NCBI GenBank assembly: GCA_025361145.1
Contig: JANYAV010000015.1
Coordinates: forward strand, 38,699 to 102,698
Length of the DNA stretch: 64,000 nt
From: Dehalococcoidia bacterium
Lineage (GTDB): Bacteria; Chloroflexota; Dehalococcoidia; Dehalococcoidales; UBA3254
Reading direction: 5' to 3'
How positions within the stretch are numbered: position 1 is the first letter of the stretch; every line of letters starts with the position of its first letter. Positions 10,586-59,937 of this stretch are shown here, piece by piece. The position numbers and the translations under genes are program-made. The notes beneath the pieces were generated by a model. It searched no databases, had not been told where the DNA came from, and saw nothing but the letters and a program-made list of their open reading frames with translations.

Positions 10586-10620
10586 CAAAAAGGTGAGACC
10601 TTCAAAGGTCCACCTTTTTG
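10586..10620. terminator. Bidirectional hairpin terminator (REP-like nested palindrome) between ndk and rsfS
   Basis: cAAAAAGGTGaGACCTTcaAAGGTCCACCTTTTTg. The outer arms resemble the hairpins flanking the RAYT gene at 59.2/59.9 kb. Confidence 0.6.
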
Positions 10621-10648
10621 AGTGTCACTTTTTTAATTCAACAATAGT

Positions 10649-12236: not shown

Positions 12237-14159
12237 ATGCGTAATATGTTAATATTCGTCGCTATTATTATCGCCACAATTGTGTTGATATATAGCTTTC
12301 AAGGGAATGCGACCTCCCAGCCGGTGGGGATCTCTTTGAGTGAGGTCATTACTCTTTCCCAGCAGGACCAGATCAGCAAAATCGAAGTCAATCAGGACAA
12401 GCTCACTATTACCAAGGTCGACGGCACCAAGGTGATTACCTATAAAGAGCCCAACTCCAACATTTCCGATCTGAAAGCTGTCGGTTTGAAACTGGATAAT
12501 GTCAATGTGGAGGTCACGACCAATTCGGGTATAGATTGGGGGACCATACTTTCCACCTTTTTACCCCTGGTGATACTGGGCGGTCTGATATTCTTCATTT
12601 TCCGTTCAGCTCGTGGAGCTAATAATCAGGCCATGAAGTTTGGACGCAGCCGCGCGCGCCTTTTCCCGGCCAACAAATCTACGGTGACCTTTGATGATGT
12701 AGCTGGGGTAGAAGAAGCCAAGCAAGAATTACATGAAGTTGTGGAATTTCTTAAAAATAGAGAAAAGTTTCAAAGCCTGGGAGCCAAAATACCTAAAGGT
12801 GTTCTACTCATTGGTTCCCCCGGTACGGGCAAGACCCTGATGGCCAGGGCCGTCGCCGGAGAAGCCGGTGTACCCTTCTTTTCCATCAGCGGCTCTGAAT
12901 TTGTGGAAATGTTTGTGGGTGTGGGCGCTTCCCGTGTGCGCGATTTATTCGATCAGGCCAAGCGCAATGCTCCCTGTATTATCTTTATTGATGAAATTGA
13001 CGCGGTTGGCCGTCAACGCGGTTCCGGGTTGGGCGGCAGTCATGATGAGCGTGAGCAGACCCTTAACCAGATTTTGGTTGAGATGGATGGCTTCGATACC
13101 AATACCAGTGTTATAGTCCTGGCAGCCACTAACCGTCCTGACATCCTCGATCCTGCTCTGCTTCGTCCCGGCCGTTTCGACCGTCGGGTTACCCTGGATG
13201 CACCGGATATCCAGGGACGTTTGGGCATTTTAAAAGTCCATTCCAAGGGCAAGCCCTTCGCCAATATCAATGACCTGGAAGTTATTGCCAGGGCCACACC
13301 CGGTTTTAGCGGCGCTGATCTGGCTAACTTAATCAATGAAGCCGCCATTCTGGCCGCACGCAGAGGTAAAAAAGTCATCGAAATGTCTGAACTAGGTGAA
13401 TCGATAGACCGTGTTATGGCCGGACCTGAGCGCAAAAGCCGCCGTATCAGCCCCAAAGAAAAGGAAATGACTGCCTATCATGAGGGCGGGCACGGTTTGG
13501 TGGCTAAGTTGTCCCCTGATGCTGATCCGGTCCATAAGATTTCGATTATTTCCCGTGGCAGAATGGGCGGGTATACTCGAATGCTACCTACTGAAGATAA
13601 AGGCATGGCGTCTCGGGCAGAACTCAAGGCGTCACTGGCTGTCCTGATGGCTGGTCGTGTAGCTGAAGAGCTGATTTTTAATGAAATGACCACGGGCGCT
13701 TCTCAGGATATGAAACAAGCGACCGATTTGGCCCGTAAGATGGTCACCGTGTGGGGTATGAGTGAAAAGATGGGCCCTCGCACCTTCGGTCAAAAGGAAG
13801 AGATGATTTTCCTGGGCCGCGAAATCTCTGAGCAGCGGGACTACAGTGAAAAAACCGCTCTGCAAATTGATAGCGAAGTCTCCAAATTAATCGATGAGGC
13901 CCATGCTACCGCCCTCAGGTTGTTAACCGAAAATAAAGATAGATTGACCTTGTTGGCTCAGACCTTGATAGCACAAGAAACTTTGGAAGGAGATGCTCTG
14001 GAAGCGGTCTTTAGCGGTAAAGCTCCGCCGCCTCCACCACCCCCAGCCACCAATATCCCTGCGCCGATTGAAACACCGGTAACTGCCCCAGCGCCTGTTT
14101 TAGCTCCCGGGAGTAAACCGGTCACCAAACCGGCAACGAATCCAATGCCGTCAAATTAA
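12237..14159 (+). CDS. ftsH: ATP-dependent zinc metalloprotease FtsH
   Basis: Walker [12 protein letters not shown] region, zinc motif HEGGH. Pro-rich C-terminal tail. Confidence 0.97.
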
Positions 14160-14201: not shown

Positions 14202-14266
14202 ATTATAATTGTCAGGTAACTGCCATTTTCTTATTTGTAATTTTTAATTTATGCTTTGAGGTAATT

Positions 14267-17102: not shown

Positions 17103-17170
17103 AGACATAGGGGTCTGCCCCCCTATGTCTCGAAACTCGAAACTGGCAAGTTGAAACTACCTCCTCACCT
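17103..17170 (+). repeat. 3'-intergenic element copy A: 11-bp-stem hairpin plus CT-phased heptads
   Basis: AGACATAGGGGtctgccCCCCTATGTCT, then ctcgaaa ctcgaaa ctggcaa gttgaaa ctacctc ctcacct. Confidence 0.55.
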
Positions 17171-42822: not shown

Positions 42823-42851
42823 CTTAATCACTTTTTACTTTTAACTTATCG
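42823..42851 (+). repeat. Weak CTT-phased heptad tract between infB and rbfA
   Basis: CTT recurs at 42823, 42831, 42838, 42845 (spacing 8, 7, 7). Confidence 0.3.
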
Positions 42852-43268: not shown

Positions 43269-44213
43269 ATGGATGGCATCCTCAATATCAACAAACCTCA
43301 GGACCTGACCTCTTTTGATATCGTAGCACGAGTTAAGAGGATTACCGGCGAGCGTCACACCGGTCATGCCGGGACGCTGGACCCCCTGGCTACCGGAGTC
43401 CTCCCCATCTGTTTAGGTAAGGCCACCCGTATCATAGAGTATCTTTTTGATGAGACCAAGACCTATCTGGCTGAGATAGAATTAGGGATCACTACCGACA
43501 CTTACGATTCTACCGGTAAAGTCAACAAGACTGCGGATGCCTCTTCTATTACCCGTGAAAAGGTTGAGTCAGTACTGGCGGCTTTCCGCGGCAGTATTTT
43601 ACAGACTCCCCCCATGTACAGCGCTCTCAAGCATAATGGCACACCCCTCTATAAACTGGCCCGCGAAGGTATTGAGGTGGAAAGGAAGAGCCGTCCGGCT
43701 CAGATCGATAAGTTGGAGATTACAACTTGGAAACCGTGCATTTTCGGTCTGGAGGTGGTTTGCGGCAAGGGTACCTATATCCGCTCCCTGGCCCATGATA
43801 TTGGAGAAGCTCTGGGTTGCGGGGCTATTATGAAGAACCTGGTGCGCAGCAGGGTGGGACCTTTCAATCTGGAGGAATCCATTACCCTCGAGCAGTTGCA
43901 AGAGACCACCAATAAGGGTTACGCGGAGCGCTACCTGTATCCGCTTGATTATGCCCTACAGGCGTTTGATGCCTTGGTGGTAAATCATGAACAGCAATGT
44001 TCTCTAATCCACGGTATGCCCATCAGCCTTGAGACGCATCAACCCGCCGCCATCAGTAGAGTCTACAACCAGGATGGCGGGTTCGTCGGTATGGTGACCT
44101 GGGACGCCGTCAACCTTCGTTGGCAGGCCCATAAAATCTTTATCCAGCAATGCTGCCAGCAAGCGGCCTCTGATCTTGAAAAAACCTCTGACCTCCTCAA
44201 TCCTGAATCCTGA
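43269..44213 (+). CDS. truB: tRNA pseudouridine-55 synthase
   Basis: MDGILNINKP...GHAGTLDPLATGVL. ATG 43269 chosen; the upstream part of the track ORF overlaps rbfA. Confidence 0.92.
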   Translation: MDGILNINKPQDLTSFDIVARVKRITGERHTGHAGTLDPLATGVLPICLGKATRIIEYLFDETKTYLAEIELGITTDTYDSTGKVNKTADASSITREKVESVLAAFRGSILQTPPMYSALKHNGTPLYKLAREGIEVERKSRPAQIDKLEITTWKPCIFGLEVVCGKGTYIRSLAHDIGEALGCGAIMKNLVRSRVGPFNLEESITLEQLQETTNKGYAERYLYPLDYALQAFDALVVNHEQQCSLIHGMPISLETHQPAAISRVYNQDGGFVGMVTWDAVNLRWQAHKIFIQQCCQQAASDLEKTSDLLNPES

Positions 44214-44275
44214 GCATCTCAGGGCGGAGTGGACTAGAAACTCGAAGCTCACCGCTCGTTACTTTTGCCTTTCCC
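44213..44275 (+). repeat. 3'-intergenic element copy B (CAGGG module plus six CT-phased heptads)
   Basis: agcatctcagggcggagtggact, then ctagaaa ctcgaag ctcaccg ctcgtta cttttgc ctttccc. Confidence 0.6.
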
Positions 44276-44300
44276 CCGCTCTTTGTGTTATCCTCAAACC

Positions 44301-44969
44301 ATGATTCAGGATTTTCACACTCATACCTCGTTAAGTGATGGCGAGCTTTCGCCCATGGAGATGATCAGGCGGGCAGCGGTGGCAGGTTATAAAACGCTGG
44401 CGCTCACTGACCACGCCTCGACTGGAGATATGCAGCGGATTGTGCCTGAGATTGTCCAGGTCTGCGCGCTGGCGCGCAAACACTGGGACATTCTGGCTAT
44501 CCCGGGGATTGAGATAACACACGCACCGGCTAAGTCTATCTCTGCTCTCGCTAAAGAAGCTAAAAAACTGGGGGCCTGGATTGTGGTAGTTCACGGCGAG
44601 ACTCCCGTAGAACCTGTTGAAAAAGGCACTAACCTGGCCGCGCTTAAGAGTCCCTATGTTGATGTTCTGGCCCATCCGGGTTTTATTACCTTGGTGGAAG
44701 GCCAACTGGCGGCCAAAAATGGGATTTATCTCGAGATTACCGCACGTAAAGGGCATTCCCTGACCAATGGACATGTAGCTAAAATGGCTTTGCAGACCGG
44801 AGCGAAGATGATCGTGGATTCCGATGCTCATACCGATAGTGATCTGCTGACTCTTGACTTCGCCGGTTTGGTTTTGAGGGGAGCGGGAGTGGAAGGGGCC
44901 GTGGTCTGGGAAGTCCTGACTGCTAACGCGGATCAGCTGGTTAAAAAGATTACCGCCGATAAAAAATAG
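44301..44969 (+). CDS. PHP-domain phosphoesterase (histidinol-phosphatase family)
   Basis: DFHTHTSLSDG, LTDH, VVHGE, DSDAH metal-ligand motifs. Confidence 0.75.
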   Translation: MIQDFHTHTSLSDGELSPMEMIRRAAVAGYKTLALTDHASTGDMQRIVPEIVQVCALARKHWDILAIPGIEITHAPAKSISALAKEAKKLGAWIVVVHGETPVEPVEKGTNLAALKSPYVDVLAHPGFITLVEGQLAAKNGIYLEITARKGHSLTNGHVAKMALQTGAKMIVDSDAHTDSDLLTLDFAGLVLRGAGVEGAVVWEVLTANADQLVKKITADKK

Positions 44970-45030
44970 AGGCTTGAAGGTCCAAACCGACCCATCTCTT
45001 GTCATGCTGGAGGAGGGCTAAGTCCGACGA

Positions 45031-45079
45031 AGCATCTCAGGGTGGGGTGGACTCGAAACTATAAACTATAAACTCGCTT
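45031..45079 (+). repeat. 3'-intergenic element copy C
   Basis: agcatctcagggtggggtggact, then ctcgaaa ctataaa ctataaa ctcgctt. 27/30 identical to copy B over the first 30 nt. Confidence 0.6.
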
Positions 45080-45512
45080 ATTTCTTCTCTACCGTCAGTG
45101 TTAAGCCCTCGACTCCTTTAATAGTGACCTCTTGCTCAGTCAGAATTTTACCTGATGCTGATATCGCTCTCCAGAGTTCTCCCATATAAAGGACCGTCCC
45201 TTCAGGATCCAGCGCTGTTTGGGCTACGGCGGTTTTACCGATTAAATCTTCCTTACCGGTAGCTACCTGGTGATGATAACTATTACGTATTCTGGAGACA
45301 GCGAAAGTTAAAGCTCCTGCTAATATCAGCAATATGAGGATCACCAGCCACCAGTTTACCTGGAGCGGACGCAAATCCGGACTCGTCAAAAATAACACGC
45401 CGATAATTATGAAGATGATGCCCAGGGCAATAAGCAAATGTGAACCGGTGAAAAATTCGCCGATTATCAAGCCTAAACCTAATATCAGTAAAAGAATGCT
45501 TAAAGCTACCAT
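45078..45512 (-). CDS. NfeD-family membrane protein
   Basis: N-terminal TM segments plus C-terminal OB-like GTVLYMGELWRAIS...VTIKGVEGLTLTV. Confidence 0.8.
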   Translation of the reverse strand: MVALSILLLILGLGLIIGEFFTGSHLLIALGIIFIIIGVLFLTSPDLRPLQVNWWLVILILLILAGALTFAVSRIRNSYHHQVATGKEDLIGKTAVAQTALDPEGTVLYMGELWRAISASGKILTEQEVTIKGVEGLTLTVEKK

Positions 45513-45558
45513 CTTTTAGCCTCTTTATTTAAATATTCAGGTTACTTTTATTATAGAT

Positions 45559-45741
45559 TCAATTTAGCCTGTGTTTATTTTTTCCAAATAAATCCACCAG
45601 AATCAATACCAAACATATCGCCAGGAAGATAGCAGGCACAGCCAAAACCACATCACCCCAACCCAATCTGCCGCTAAAAAAAGAAGCAAAGATAAAAGTT
45701 ACAACTCCAATAGCACCTGTTACCCATTTTGCTGTATTCAT
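45559..45741 (-). CDS. Small two-TM membrane protein
   Basis: 60-aa hydrophobic ORF. No homology recognised. Confidence 0.4.
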   Translation of the reverse strand: MNTAKWVTGAIGVVTFIFASFFSGRLGWGDVVLAVPAIFLAICLVLILVDLFGKNKHRLN

Positions 45742-45761
45742 GTTGCCAATTCTACCATAAT

Positions 45762-46184
45762 CTATCTTTTATAATGCTCCAGCTGGAAAATCGCCTGATC
45801 CACCGGCGAGTTGGCGGTGAAATGTTGAGCCAGCTGGGTGATGATGGCTTTGAATTCATCCTCGGAGAGATCGGCCTTCATTTCATGGATCAGGGCGGCG
45901 GTAACGACCAGCACTGCCCCTTTCCTCAGGGCGGTCAGATCGAAGGTGATGTAGCGGGGGTCGCGGACGTTATCATCGTTCAGGCGGATGCCGGAGTAGT
46001 AGCAGCGGAAGCATTTATCTTCTTTGTCCCAGGCCTTGCGCAACGCATTAACGCGGGCGGCCAGTTCCGCTTTTTCGCGGGTTTCCACTCTGGCCATGAT
46101 ATTGCCGCAGCGCCGGCAGTAGGTAGCCAGAGAATTTCTTAAAACGTCGTCGCAAATTATGCATTTAGAAACAGACGGTCCCAT
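45762..46184 (-). CDS. Zinc-ribbon protein with a degenerate HNH-like C-terminal region
   Basis: CIICD...CRRCG ribbon. CFRCYYSGIRL...ITFDLTALRKGA...VVTAALIHEMKADLSEDEF aligns by eye to the HNH template with catalytic and Zn residues replaced. Confidence 0.55.
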   Translation of the reverse strand: MGPSVSKCIICDDVLRNSLATYCRRCGNIMARVETREKAELAARVNALRKAWDKEDKCFRCYYSGIRLNDDNVRDPRYITFDLTALRKGAVLVVTAALIHEMKADLSEDEFKAIITQLAQHFTANSPVDQAIFQLEHYKR

Positions 46185-46272
46185 AAATCTTCACCTCTAC
46201 GTTATTATCTAGTTTAGCAGAAATGGATGATAGGAGCGAGCTTCACCCTTTGAGTAATAGCTTCATTGTCAT

Positions 46273-46386
46273 TTAGCGATAGGGATCTTTGCGATGGCTA
46301 ATATCCATAATAAACACCAGCGTTTTAGCAGAATCAATGGTGTAGAAAACACTGTAATCACTATTCGGTAGCGATAAATTGAATAT
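46273..46386 (-). pseudogene. 5'-truncated RelE/ParE-family toxin remnant
   Basis: Translates to IFNLSLPNSDYSVFYTIDSAKTLVFIMDISHRKDPYR*. It begins at a stop 1 nt from the DUF3883 gene's stop codon. No start codon or N-terminal half is present. Confidence 0.55.
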
Positions 46387-46389
46387 TTA

Positions 46390-47238
46390 CTATTCTATTC
46401 TAGCTAGATATTCCACAGGTTCCAGATTGAACGACTTAGCCAATACTCCATTCTTGGTGAAGAGTTTAGGATCCCGTCTAAAGGTGAAATTTCGGTAGAG
46501 ATAATAACTGGAATCGGCTTTTACAGATTGTTCAATTTCATTCCGAGTTACATAGAAGGGAGTTAAAGAGCCATACGCTGTGGTTTTTACTTCAATCAAT
46601 CGGTCTTGCCCCGATTCCTCAAAAGACAATATATCGAATCCGGCGCTGTCTCCTATGGTTTTAGAGACATGCTCAATTTTAGAAGCCAAACGTTCTTGTT
46701 TGGCTTGTATCAGACGGGCTTGCTCGAACTTGATTACAAATTGTTCCCCGGCTAAACCCAAAGATTGATTTTTAGCTTCTTGTGCCAGATAATCCAGTCC
46801 TGTCCGAAATGGTTTAATCGATTGATGAGTAGCTAATTTATTAGAATCCAAATGATTTGCAACAGGTGGTTTTATCAATCTGGTCAAAATATCATCAACA
46901 CCAATAATTCTAGCTGGCGATTCAACTTGCTGTTTGATGTAGTCTACCAAGGTTTTATCGTTTTCCAGACGGTTGTAAACAATACTAAAAAGCATTTGCT
47001 GATAGTTTCCTAGAGGCTTATATCCATTGATAAACGGGAAGTCAATGTCACGTAAAACCGCGCTTATATTCTGATGTTTACGCTCAATGGCTCCTTCAGA
47101 GCGTTTGTTGAGTAACGCTACTAATTGGTGCCTATGCTCGGTCTTATTATAATCCTGCCCGTGCAATTCCTTGTCTAGCATATTGAAGTAGTCGGCAACT
47201 GTGGCTTCAACTTCTCCTTGGCTCCAATTTTCACCCAT
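46390..47238 (-). CDS. DUF3883 (restriction-endonuclease-like) domain protein with N-terminal helical domain
   Basis: C-terminal GFDILSFEESGQDRLIEVKTT...YYLYR pattern (PD-(D/E)xK-like). N-terminal RSEGAIERKHQNISAVL...GYKPLGNYQ. AT-rich gene. Confidence 0.75.
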   Translation of the reverse strand: MGENWSQGEVEATVADYFNMLDKELHGQDYNKTEHRHQLVALLNKRSEGAIERKHQNISAVLRDIDFPFINGYKPLGNYQQMLFSIVYNRLENDKTLVDYIKQQVESPARIIGVDDILTRLIKPPVANHLDSNKLATHQSIKPFRTGLDYLAQEAKNQSLGLAGEQFVIKFEQARLIQAKQERLASKIEHVSKTIGDSAGFDILSFEESGQDRLIEVKTTAYGSLTPFYVTRNEIEQSVKADSSYYLYRNFTFRRDPKLFTKNGVLAKSFNLEPVEYLARIE

Positions 47239-47350
47239 TTATTACACCTTATAGCATATTTTGCTTGTTAAAAGTATATCATACGATTTAGTTAGTTTCT
47301 TCTTTAAATGACGTCTTTTAACTGAACCTTCGGATGATGATATCAATTAA

Positions 47351-47477
47351 CTACGAGCTTCCAGCTTCGAGAGTCAAGCCCATCCCCTGAGATCCTTCAG
47401 CCTCGCCGATCGAGGCTTCCAGGATGACAGCAAAGCTGTCAGTTTAGAGTTAAGAGCTTCTAGCTACGAGTTTCGAG
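47351..47477 (-). repeat. Composite 3'-intergenic element copy D (two CT-phased heptad arrays flanking two hairpins and a CAGGGG module)
   Basis: Minus strand: ctcgaaa ctcgtag ctagaag ctcttaa ctctaaa ctgacag ctttgct ... CCTCGatcggCGAGG ... gatctcaggggatggg cttgact ctcgaag ctggaag ctcgtag. Confidence 0.65.
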
Positions 47478-47495
47478 AAAAAGGCATGATTACAC

Positions 47496-48290
47496 TCAGC
47501 TTTTATCAACTTGCTTATTGGTCATATCAGTCAGTTTTATCTCCGGATGGTGGTACCTCTCATACCCCGCAGTTTTCTTGCCGTATTGGATGGCCTTCTG
47601 CGGACACCACTGAATGCAGGCTAAACACTGTTCGCAATGATGCTGCCAAGCCGGTTTGCCTGACTCCATCTTGATGTTTTCCGCCGGGCAGACCTGGCGG
47701 CAGATGGCGCAGGAATTGCACCTTTCATCCACCCAGAAGGAGCCGTCCATGGTGCGTACTTGTTTAAAACTGACCCTATAGAGCAGATTAAAGACGATCC
47801 CCGGCCAGAAAGGTCCTTTATCAACCGGTTTTTCTTCCCGATTTTGAATGACAGGCAGGATAGCGGCGATTTTCTGAGCGGCCGCGGCGATGATCTTTTC
47901 CTGCAATTCCTTAGCTACCGCTCCGCCCCACGGAAGATAGTTGGAGGGCAGCTGGACCTCATAGCCGGCCGAGAGTTTGAGTCCGTTCTGCTTACAGAGT
48001 CTCTTGAACTGGACTAGCGTGTTGGCTACCTGGCCGGCGTCTACCGCTACCGCGAAAAGATAGTCAGGAGAGAGAGCTTTCGACTCGCGAATAAAGCGGA
48101 GGATGGGGGCGGGCACGCCCCACATATGGACCGGGAAGACCACTCCGATCACTTTGGAGGTTATGGGTTGCTTGTCCTTAAGCCAGCTTGCAATAGAGAC
48201 TACGTCAGCCTCCCCCAGGGCTTTAGCCAGGGTGCGGGCCACCCATAATGAGTTGCCCGTGCCAGTATAATAAAAGACAGTGGTTTTCAT
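47496..48290 (-). CDS. EFR1-family ferredoxin (flavodoxin-like domain plus 2x[4Fe-4S])
   Basis: FYYTGTGNS N-terminus; CNSCAICRQVCP and CEQCLACIQWCP clusters. Confidence 0.85.
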   Translation of the reverse strand: MKTTVFYYTGTGNSLWVARTLAKALGEADVVSIASWLKDKQPITSKVIGVVFPVHMWGVPAPILRFIRESKALSPDYLFAVAVDAGQVANTLVQFKRLCKQNGLKLSAGYEVQLPSNYLPWGGAVAKELQEKIIAAAAQKIAAILPVIQNREEKPVDKGPFWPGIVFNLLYRVSFKQVRTMDGSFWVDERCNSCAICRQVCPAENIKMESGKPAWQHHCEQCLACIQWCPQKAIQYGKKTAGYERYHHPEIKLTDMTNKQVDKS

Positions 48291-54410: not shown

Positions 54411-54485
54411 CTAACAGTTACCAGTTTCAAGTTTCAAGTTGAAACAGGCTTTCAGCAATGACCTGAAAGCCAAATCCCAAGATAC
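54411..54485 (-). repeat. 3'-intergenic element copy E (G-tract, 9-bp hairpin, four CT-phased heptads)
   Basis: Minus strand: atcttgggatttGGCTTTCAGgtcattgCTGAAAGCCtgtttcaa cttgaaa cttgaaa ctggtaa ctgttag. Follows the helicase stop. Confidence 0.55.
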
Positions 54486-59136: not shown

Positions 59137-59199
59137 AATACCTTATCTTAACAAATTAACCGTTTACTTTCATTAACCCCTGATAATCATAAATATAGC

Positions 59200-59937
59200 T
59201 TCAAAAGGTGACACCTTTTTCAAAGAGTAGTATAGTATGTTCTATGCCAGCAAAGAATTCAACCAAAATGTATGTTGAGGATGGTTATTATCATATTTAT
59301 AATCGTGGTGTTGAAAAGAGGAAAATCTTTTTGAATGACCAGGATTATGGGGTGTTCATTAATTATTTAAAAGAGTATCTGTCCCCGAAAGATAAAATGG
59401 AACTCTTGAAATCAGCGGACAAGCCTAATATTTCTTCAAAAGAAAGGGCACGGATAATAAGCAAACTACGCTTAAAAAACTATCATTCAGAGATCACGTT
59501 ATTGGCTTACTGCCTGATGCCAAATCACTTTCATCTATTTTTAAAGCAAAAGACCCCAGATGCTATTGATCGATTGATGAGTTCTCTCTGTACGCGATAT
59601 ACGATGTATTTCAATCGAAACCATAATAGGGTAGGCCCGCTGTACCAGGGTGTCTATAAAGCTGTTTTAATGACCAATGAAGCGCAATTCCTGCATATCA
59701 CGCGTTACATGCACTATCAGACCTTAGGCGATTCATCGAAAACTGGTCAGAGTTATCCTTCTTCTTACCCCGAGTATCTGGGCTTTAGAAAAACGGATTG
59801 GGTCCACCCTGCAGAAATATTAAGCTGTTTTACAAATAAAAATCCCCGGCTTTCCTACCAAACTTTTGTTTCTGAATACCGAGATGATATCGAGTCAAAT
59901 ATCGATATTTAGATTCAAAAGGTGGCACCTTTTTCAA
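59200..59937 (+). mobile_element. RAYT-type Y1 transposase gene bracketed by REP-like hairpins
   Basis: ttcaaaaggtgAcacctttttcaa (59200-59223) and ttcaaaaggtgGcacctttttcaa (59914-59937): 23/24 identical direct copies of an imperfect palindrome. Confidence 0.7.
59244..59912 (+). CDS. IS200/IS605-like Y1 (HUH) transposase, REP-associated (RAYT) type
   Basis: YYHIYNRG...AYCLMPNHFHLFL (HUH)...RVGPLYQGVYKA...RYMH. ATG 59244 preferred; the track GTG 59208 lies inside the hairpin. Confidence 0.85.
   Translation: MPAKNSTKMYVEDGYYHIYNRGVEKRKIFLNDQDYGVFINYLKEYLSPKDKMELLKSADKPNISSKERARIISKLRLKNYHSEITLLAYCLMPNHFHLFLKQKTPDAIDRLMSSLCTRYTMYFNRNHNRVGPLYQGVYKAVLMTNEAQFLHITRYMHYQTLGDSSKTGQSYPSSYPEYLGFRKTDWVHPAEILSCFTNKNPRLSYQTFVSEYRDDIESNIDI

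Follow-up and report, generated by a model that had tools for sequence, protein, structure and literature searches.

The 64,000-nucleotide stretch of DNA considered here (the window; contig JANYAV010000015.1, positions 38,699 to 102,698, assembly GCA_025361145.1, from a Dehalococcoidia bacterium) raises the question of what is represented by the runs of CT-phased, seven-nucleotide units found in several of its intergenic spacers: a signal serving the neighbouring genes, or a repeat generated at the level of DNA. The exemplar of these runs, designated E1, lies at 47351-47477 on the minus strand, within the spacer of 257 nt that separates an EFR1-type ferredoxin gene from a NOV_C-domain gene. 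A preliminary description had presented E1 as one of five copies of an element not previously described, and had speculated that it might be a 3'-end processing or stability signal, a loading site for a multimeric RNA-binding factor (for example through Rho-like recognition), or a lineage-specific miniature repeat; the last of these comes closest to the evidence. As judged from sequence comparison, E1 is a set of degenerate heptanucleotide tandem repeats, belonging to the class that includes short tandemly repeated repetitive (STRR) sequences and long simple sequence repeats (SSR), with small dispersed modules nested among them. Its novelty is limited to the host lineage and the sequences of the units. 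We consider it probable that such arrays have a DNA-level origin, in 7-bp slippage combined with the copying of modules between loci, and that their effects on expression are at most secondary. E1 and its flanking genes are composed as follows.

47496-48290, minus strand: EFR1-type ferredoxin gene (Pfam), flanking the E1 spacer.
47477-47429, minus strand: array A of E1, seven degenerate heptads, CTCGAAA CTCGTAG CTAGAAG CTCTTAA CTCTAAA CTGACAG CTTTGCT.
47440-47426, minus strand: hairpin 1 of E1, GACAGCtttGCTGTC (GACAGC-ttt-GCTGTC), overlapping the final two heptads of array A.
47416-47400, minus strand: hairpin 2 of E1, GCCTCGatcgGCGAGGC (GCCTCG-atcg-GCGAGGC), as read in the sequence.
47398-47379, minus strand: G-rich dispersed module of E1, GAAGGATCTCAGGGGATGGG, a diverged copy of the module at 44213 and 45031.
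47378-47351, minus strand: array B of E1, four CT-phased heptads, CTTGACT CTCGAAG CTGGAAG CTCGTAG.
46390-47238, minus strand: NOV_C-domain gene (Pfam), flanking the E1 spacer.

Array A starts 18 nt past the ferredoxin stop codon and, on direct reading of the minus strand, all seven of its heptads start with CT; both hairpins are present in the minimum-free-energy folds for RNA and for DNA. The composition of E1 thus reads as the preliminary description had it, from the seven heptads through the two hairpins and the G-rich module to the final four heptads. The second array, which had been called in phase, is so internally but not relative to array A, from which it is offset by 99 nt (1 mod 7).

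The seven-nucleotide period stands well clear of shuffled expectation. A CT run of seven at lag 7, as found in the E1 spacer, was reached in none of 500 dinucleotide-preserving shuffles, and the same holds (0/500) for the heptad runs of two further elements, E3 and E5, detailed below. CT runs of at least four at lag 7 number five in the whole window and all five are intergenic, the intergenic fraction being 13.7%, while no other lag among 4-11 yields any intergenic CT run. ACT runs of at least three follow the same lag-7 intergenic pattern in the window, and intergenic self-match peaks at lag 7 (0.288), lag 14 (0.280) and lag 21 (0.287), against about 0.265. Among the 11 heptads of E1, the initial C and the T in second position are present in 11/11 and A in sixth position (A6) in 9/11, a pattern matched by 0 of 20000 within-unit shuffles. 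Tandem Repeats Finder gives period-7 rows at 17129, 45056 and 54423, with degenerate units, and ACT or AGT occurs in 23 of 56 array consensus units, compared with 14.1 +/- 3.1 for shuffled units.

Beyond E1, arrays of this type recur in the window at the following positions.

17104-17163, plus strand: E2, a 10-bp hairpin (GACATAGGGG-tctgcc-CCCCTATGTC), then CTCGAAA CTCGAAA CTGGCAA GTTGAAA CTACCTC.
44184-44213, plus strand: heptads at the end of truB (CCTCTGA ... TCCTGAA TCCTGAG), which are the last codons and stop of that gene.
44213-44275, plus strand: E3, module AGCATCTCAGGGCGGAGTGGA, then CTAGAAA CTCGAAG CTCACCG CTCGTTA CTTTTGC CTTTCCC.
45031-45077, plus strand: E4, module AGCATCTCAGGGTGGGGTGGA, then CTCGAAA CTATAAA CTATAAA CTCGC.
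54411-54471, minus strand: E5, hairpin (GGCTTTCAG-gtcattg-CTGAAAGCC), then CTTGAAA CTTGAAA CTGGTAA CTGTTAG.
42828-42850, plus strand: short array CACTTTTT ACTTTTA ACTTATC, immediately before the GAGG and ATG of rbfA.
14223-14260, plus strand: T-rich run of heptads, ATTTTCT TATTTGT AATTTTT AATTTAT, that leads into an ATG (about 14250).

E2 sits downstream of an adenine deaminase gene. E3 begins inside the stop codon of an open reading frame (ORF) assigned to TruB by Pfam, upstream of a PHP-domain gene; E4 lies between that PHP-domain gene and a convergent NfeD gene, abutting the NfeD stop codon; and E5 lies between helicase and ftsY genes, with a looser TTG-phased stretch 5' of its hairpin. The same two modules had been said to recur in the same order at four sites besides E1, which holds for those at 44213 and 45031 but not for those at 17103 and 54411: E2 and E5 (heptads at 54447) lack the G-rich module, and the hairpins that precede their heptads are single-copy and mutually unrelated. 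The arrays at 42828 and 14223, absent from the earlier list, each abut a start codon, while the distance from array to next start is 60-160 nt for E1, E2 and E5. The array at 42828 belongs to the heptad family ACTTTTN, which fills the spacers of a relative, L003. The run at 14223-14260 is probably intergenic, the listed ORF start (14186) appearing to be too far upstream. Beside E3, a separate segment, TGTGTTATCCT (44278-44303), ends 6-7 nt before the PHP-domain ATG, which has no Shine-Dalgarno sequence there; it is conserved in L003 and resembles the extended -10 box of a leaderless transcript.

The G-rich module is the second component of these elements. It measures about 35 nt, is laid out as GAAGnATCT, a G-rich stretch and GGACT or GGGCTT, and adjoins heptad arrays. 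Its copies at 44213 and 45031 are 84% identical over 37 nt (repeat family D3). An nhmmer profile of the module with its first heptads, built from four copies (three in the window, one in L003) along the lines that had been proposed for a search model, recovers exactly the four copies used for building it (47419-47354, 44196-44258, 45012-45076 and L003 3561-3625), with 52.8 bits and E = 3e-14 for the E1 copy, itself among the four profile-building sequences. The L003 copy, between lepA and marC, occupies a non-orthologous site. A further copy, GCTGAAGCATCTGGAGGTTGGGCTTTTCTCTCG, was found beside more heptads in the same genome (L095), about 8 kb past the window end, which brings the total to four copies in this genome (three in the window and one in L095) and one in L003, each adjoining heptads. 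With four copies here and a fifth in a relative, at a locus that is not orthologous, the module behaves as a small dispersed repeat. No module is present in the truB-PHP spacers of L003 and a second relative, L093, and no clean empty site can be defined, since both spacers have diverged entirely. A metagenome scan with ATCTCAGGGNGGNGTGGACT gave nine loci, none of them followed by heptads, and these matches are for that reason taken to be chance or unrelated. Two other small repeats were seen in the course of these searches: a second, hairpin-forming module, GGTCCCGCATGAAT..TGAATCGGGA, about 30 nt long, that adjoins heptad arrays in L003 (9962-9992, 14115-14143 and, in reverse, about 12548-12580), and a block, AAAGGTCTCATCTTGCG, common to the unrelated loci L003 9876 and L095 1505.

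The window belongs to an uncultured Dehalococcoidales bacterium, and those homologues of its PHP-domain protein that carry a name are assigned to Dehalococcoidales or Dehalococcoidia. Among relatives, the arrays are very unevenly spread and confined to a few lineages. Eighty loci around the orthologue of the PHP gene were drawn from species-representative genomes, together with closer relatives from metagenome assemblies, and a strong period-7 array was defined as at least four units with at least 70% self-match. Their numbers were as follows.

Window, 64 kb: 6 strong period-7 arrays.
L003, 20.7 kb, about 85% nucleotide identity in genes: 14.
L029, from the Dehalococcoidia metagenome-assembled genome (MAG) CedChl2, 20.6 kb: 21.
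L007: 3.
Other Dehalococcoidia loci fetched: 0 or 1 each.

Period-7 arrays are also borne by the outgroup contigs L071, L076 and L083, and the same detector set to lags 8-11 finds almost nothing in any locus. All 14 strong arrays of L003 lie outside called genes. The units themselves differ from one genome to the next: CTCGAAA, CTATAAA, CTTGAAA and ACTTTTN in the window, GAAACTN, TTTGACT, TTTGCCT and ATTTGAG in L003, and GACTCCA, CAGTTGG, CCCCTGA and GAACCTT in L029. This turnover extends to single orthologous spacers. Between truB and the PHP gene the window has CTNGAAA heptads, L003 has ACTTTTN, and L093 (93% amino acid identity in the PHP protein) has TTTCTTA. The spacer between lepA and marC is array-free and 33 nt long in the window, but about 260 nt and full of arrays in L003. 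In L094, with 83% amino acid identity in the ferredoxin, the spacer orthologous to that of E1, downstream of the gene, has no array; five ACTGNNA heptads (L094 407-452) stand instead directly before the GGAGG and ATG of the ferredoxin orthologue. One of these, ACTGATA, is a cyclic permutation of TAACTGA, the unit of a known repeat discussed below. At E4, synteny between the window and L003 (44970-45077 versus L003 10706-10853) breaks exactly past the PHP gene, beyond which the window has the convergent NfeD gene and L003 a TauE gene.

As had been reported, all five of E1-E5 lie downstream of a stop codon and are co-oriented with that gene; four of the five lie equally upstream of the next co-directional gene, and the two placements are inseparable because most array spacers separate co-directional genes. 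In the window the CT or ACT strand is the sense strand of adjacent genes in 7/7 arrays, and arrays change strand at about 46 kb along with gene direction, without a matching switch in GC skew. In L003, on the other hand, ACT-phased arrays lie nearly all on one DNA strand, whatever the gene direction, and in three spacers (lepA/marC, methyltransferase/M48 peptidase and M48/HicB) they are antisense to both flanking genes, so that the orientation rule, uniform in the window, is a tendency at best.

One alternative is that the arrays act in the transcript as phased sites, each matching the roughly 7-nt footprint of a protein that binds single-stranded RNA, such as a cold-shock protein, ribosomal protein S1 or a HutP-like oligomer. 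Its binding would adjust how the adjacent gene is translated or how stable its message is, in the manner that MacGregor proposed for TAACTGA repeats. In favour of this are the consistent sense strand in the window, the invariant CU and the A6 of E1's 11 heptads, the ACT enrichment among array units, the arrays that reach a Shine-Dalgarno sequence or start codon (at 42828 and 14223, in L094, in L007 and in several viral contigs), and the existence of the hypothesis and of candidate proteins in the literature (PMC4679880). We nevertheless regard this explanation as unlikely, if still a serious alternative. The unit sequence is wholly different in close relatives at the same spacer, the three L003 spacers carry arrays antisense to both neighbours, the genes on either side of E4 converge, the next start is 60-160 nt away from E1, E2 and E5, and the same units are tolerated within coding sequence in L029.

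The position of E1-E5 downstream of stop codons, in the sense orientation, could alternatively reflect a non-canonical termination or 3'-processing signal, for example one in which spaced YC dinucleotides load Rho. The hairpin that precedes the heptads in E2 and E5, and the C/G ratio of 1.6-3.5 in array A and the E2-E4 heptads, in which C exceeds G, are points in its favour. Yet a hairpin followed by a T-run coincides with none of E1-E5, in a window where canonical terminators do exist: one, bidirectional, at 10597-10611, served as the positive control, and another like it can be seen at about 33200. The RNA fold of E1 is no better than that of shuffled sequences (z = -0.9); its DNA fold is modestly better (z = -2.5) because of the two local hairpins, and E4 has no fold. 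A rut (Rho utilization) site is a C-rich, G-poor, unstructured tract of roughly 70-80 nt. The overall C/G of E1 is 0.86, with its G-rich block, array B and E5 have at least as much G as C, and the stretches in which C exceeds G extend for only 26-49 nt, far below the length of such a tract, so that the composition is not rut-like. In relatives, the array is missing downstream of the orthologous gene (L094) or arrays run antisense (L003). A 3'-end, terminator or Rho-related role is accordingly very improbable, and the notion that the arrays are dedicated 3'-end or termination signals is not supported.

Known classes of structured RNA and repeat were likewise sought. Rfam 15, run against the entire window, gave no match that reached the gathering threshold; at E <= 5 in 44100-47600 it gave two chance-level matches, both away from the element, and nothing relevant; a search for tRNA and tmRNA found none. 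The view that the arrays are not coding in their period of 7, and are neither repetitive extragenic palindromic (REP) sequences, CRISPR nor canonical terminators, is borne out by the repeat and terminator searches: no family of the CRISPR type (25-40 nt repeats with unique spacers of similar length) appeared in the repeat searches of the window, and REP sequences or their hairpin-forming doublets (REPINs), mobilized by a REP-associated tyrosine transposase (RAYT), were rejected, the hairpins of E1, E2 and E5 being mutually unrelated and single-copy. A canonical four-run G-quadruplex was ruled out on reading the window cores, because these hold only two or three G-runs. GANTC methylation sites fit the L029 units GAGTC/GACTC, not the units of the window, and were rejected as a general explanation.

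Phased units might also serve as DNA sites, whether as heptad operators for a multimeric protein or as -35-like hexamers (TTGAAA, TTGACT, TTGCCT) recurring every 7 bp. The omega repressor, which binds 7-bp heptads on pSM19035, provides a precedent. In a promoter-like match at E5 the -35 falls on the heptad TTGAAA and is followed, just past the array, by an extended -10 (TG-TAGAGT); the arrays of L003 and L007 are largely TTTGACT or TTTGCCT; and AGTC- and GACT-phased arrays face each other across a G-rich centre in L029 and viral contigs, with operator-like symmetry. The match at E5 is to consensus only, however, and promoter-like sites in 42.7-48.4 kb occur at the shuffled level (8 found, 7.9 expected). 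CTCGAAA and CTATAAA contain no -35-like hexamer, the window arrays are direct rather than inverted, and no single protein specificity fits, because the unit sequences are not conserved between relatives. A role of the arrays as operator or promoter sites in DNA is therefore improbable.

In L029, a distant relative (JBLYPS010000004, 12020-20653), arrays occur inside the intact ORFs of rpoC, rpoB and a leuA-like gene (Pfam) as units with the architecture heptad array / G-rich core / heptad array. With 100% identity, leuA and rpoB share a 59-nt unit, (AGTCAAG)3-GGGGAGGGGG-(ACTCCAG)4, to which the rpoB copy adds one heptad (4 versus 5); related copies are found in rpoC. The units are translated in frame, for example as SQESRVKGRGTPDSRLQTPD, and constitute in-frame additions at variable loops relative to the orthologues in L057, which are 81-83% identical; a peptide such as SQESRVKGRGTPDSRLQTPDSR is predicted to be heptad-encoded in RpoB, RpoC and LeuA. 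Their uniform sense orientation may be explained by stops on the reverse strand (CTTGACT contains TGA). Elsewhere in L029 rpoC, at about residues 1112-1126, there is a 13-residue insertion relative to L057, SCHCERSEAISIV, that is not made of heptads and looks like another small inserted repeat.

Composite units of this kind are not confined to L029. A G-run with GGACT and ACT-phased heptads is present in the window, in L003 and in L029, control patterns at lag 6 and lag 8 giving no matches. Searching viral contigs for GGGGACT(N4ACT)3 brought up 19 stretches. Some two-thirds of them are genuine arrays, and several of these consist of an AGT-phased array, a G-rich centre and an ACT-phased array. 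The IMG/VR contigs bearing composites are L098, L099, L100, L103, L105, L107, L109 and L115. L098, L105 and L115 have mutually complementary arrays that give strong hairpin folds (z from -5.9 to -9.0); the elements of the window do not fold into array-array hairpins of the viral type. Several viral composites end just before a Shine-Dalgarno sequence and start codon.

On a bolder reading of these composites, the G-rich core with its ACT/AGT-phased arrays would be a family of self-propagating miniature elements, common to divergent Dehalococcoidia and viral contigs, copied in trans and able to settle in frame in essential genes such as rpoB and rpoC, and the heptad arrays of many phyla would be its footprint rather than the product of plain slippage. 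We hold this to be possible, if not the likelier course of events. Such propagation might pass through a single-stranded DNA hairpin intermediate, the viral arrays being complementary, with z = -6 to -9.

Two transposase genes were noted in this genome. The ORF at 59208-59912 on the plus strand is a Y1 transposase (PF01797), and a second Y1, RAYT-like gene of 303 aa is found at L095 315-1226, about 8-9 kb past the window end; for both, the best NCBIfam match is the REP-associated tyrosine transposase, below cutoff. The former is flanked by 31-nt direct repeats (59193-59223 and 59907-59937) with the hairpin AAAAGGTGnCACCTTTTT, and a hairpin related to AAAAGGTGnCACCTTTTT forms a terminator at 10589-10625; the latter is flanked by 26-nt inverted repeats (270-295 and 1314-1339, 92% identical), of which there is no copy in the window. 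A link between RAYT and the arrays is unsupported: the repeats flanking both Y1 genes do not recur at the heptad elements.

Slippage and module copying, the course of events that we favour, would operate in several steps. Arrays would arise and change through 7-bp slippage or unequal exchange in DNA, modules would be copied between loci by a copy-and-paste or conversion process, and the arrays would survive in places that tolerate them, namely spacers, the ends of genes and the surface loops of proteins. Effects on expression, through altered spacing of promoter elements, -35-like TTGAAA or TTGACT, or unstructured A/U-rich leaders, would be secondary to this origin. Near-identical copies at unrelated loci have been observed both for the G-rich module and, in L029, for the whole array/G-core/array unit.

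Several observations weigh against this account. The first two positions, C and T, are invariant in 11/11 heptads of E1 while other columns vary; had one amplified unit simply decayed neutrally, no two columns would be expected to stand out. The enrichment of ACT/AGT hints at a sequence preference, whether of a protein or of the generating mechanism, and the CT strand follows the sense of adjacent genes in all seven window arrays. No generating or mobilizing enzyme was identified; the flanking repeats of the two RAYT-like Y1 genes are unrelated to the element. Finally, the 6.8 kb around E1 are 100% identical to JAYSNM010000015.1 (MAG GCA_043723745.1) and to Logan contigs, and no 7-nt copy-number polymorphism was seen at E1 among public assemblies of its population. 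One Logan contig of the same population (SRR22198307) stops inside E1, at 47416, in the second hairpin, as might be expected if repeats break short-read assemblies.

In many bacterial genomes, no long simple repeats are commoner than the heptanucleotide ones. The present arrays add a phylum-level host lineage, the Dehalococcoidales of the Chloroflexota, and the in-frame RNA polymerase units of L029, together with the hairpin versions in viral contigs, offer a concrete handle on the choice between slippage and mobile elements. From the standpoint of annotation, heptad spacers should not be taken for terminators or small RNAs, and these repeats can be expected to break short-read assemblies.

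The arrays had been put forward as no described element, a claim that does not stand beside what is known of intergenic heptanucleotide repeats, among them long SSRs (Mrazek 2007), STRR sequences and TAACTGA repeats. In the accounts given of Mrazek 2007 in PMC4679880 and PMC4692102, heptanucleotide repeats outnumber the other long SSR classes in many prokaryotic genomes, are scattered phylogenetically, and are proposed to originate by polymerase slippage. TAACTGA repeats occur in marine Beggiatoaceae and in some Cyanobacteria and Bacteroidetes, in short intergenic sets that are often just 5' of start codons, sometimes overlap stop codons or sit inside ORFs, vary by 7-nt indels between strains, and are missing in close relatives with the same gene order; they may tune translation or stability through an RNA-binding protein, for which candidates were named (MacGregor 2015, PMC4679880). 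Our literature search, in its 15 top-ranked matches, returned no report tying Dehalococcoidia to such repeats.

The window arrays resemble STRR sequences and long SSRs in their 7-nt head-to-tail units, their almost exclusively intergenic location, the presence of several unit families per genome, their patchy phylogeny and their differences between close relatives. They differ in having few units per array (2-7) and strong degeneracy, CT (and A6) alone being fixed, in their host, and in the lack of visible copy-number polymorphism at E1; as to 7-nt steps, the E1 population assemblies are identical, whereas paralogous L029 copies differ by exactly one heptad. The cyanobacterial STRR units described by Mazel in 1990 are reportedly CCCCAGT, TTGGTCA and CAACAGT, and the unit set of L029 resembles them. 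On the opposite strand, STRR1 (CCCCAGT) gives GGGGACT, the G-run-plus-ACT junction seen here, and the units ACTGGTA and ACTGTTA resemble the reverse complement of STRR3 (ACTGTTG).

With TAACTGA repeats the arrays have in common ACT-containing heptads in short sets of 2-6, intergenic, in the sense orientation and mixed with other heptamers, which sometimes overlap a stop or abut a start codon and which relatives with the same gene order lack; the occasional occurrence of TAACTGA repeats in ORFs, including an RNA polymerase beta-prime-like gene, may be compared with L029 rpoC. The window units (CTCGAAA, CTATAAA, CTTGAAA and CTTTTNN) are different, only L094 having the permuted ACTGATA, and most window arrays lie closer to the stop codon before them than to the start codon after them; they are joined to a G-rich module or hairpin. 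The forward placement typical of TAACTGA repeats, a few nucleotides before a start, is found at 42828 and probably at 14223; E1, E2 and E5 are 60-160 nt away, and E4 lies between convergent genes.

For the modules, the closest parallel is in Nostoc punctiforme, in which small dispersed repeats (SDR, 21-27 nt) are said to have been found by Elhai in 2008 nested in tandem heptameric repeats. In both cases a short, non-periodic, sometimes hairpin-forming module recurs at unrelated loci, within heptad arrays or along their edges; only 4-5 copies are found here, in about 95 kb examined, and the sequence of the window module is not known to be related to those of the Nostoc SDRs. The Rickettsia palindromic elements, which Ogata in 2000 reportedly described as in-frame selfish insertions in protein genes, palindromes of 100-150 bp, provide a parallel for L029 only, with its near-identical short elements in frame at variable surface loops of rpoB, rpoC and leuA. 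L029 differs from them in having heptad arrays, and no such inserts were seen in the genes of the window except at the 3' end of truB. The arrays of these Dehalococcoidales have the GGGG-ACT junction and ACT phasing in common with the cyanobacterial and Beggiatoaceae repeats, and travel with small dispersed modules.

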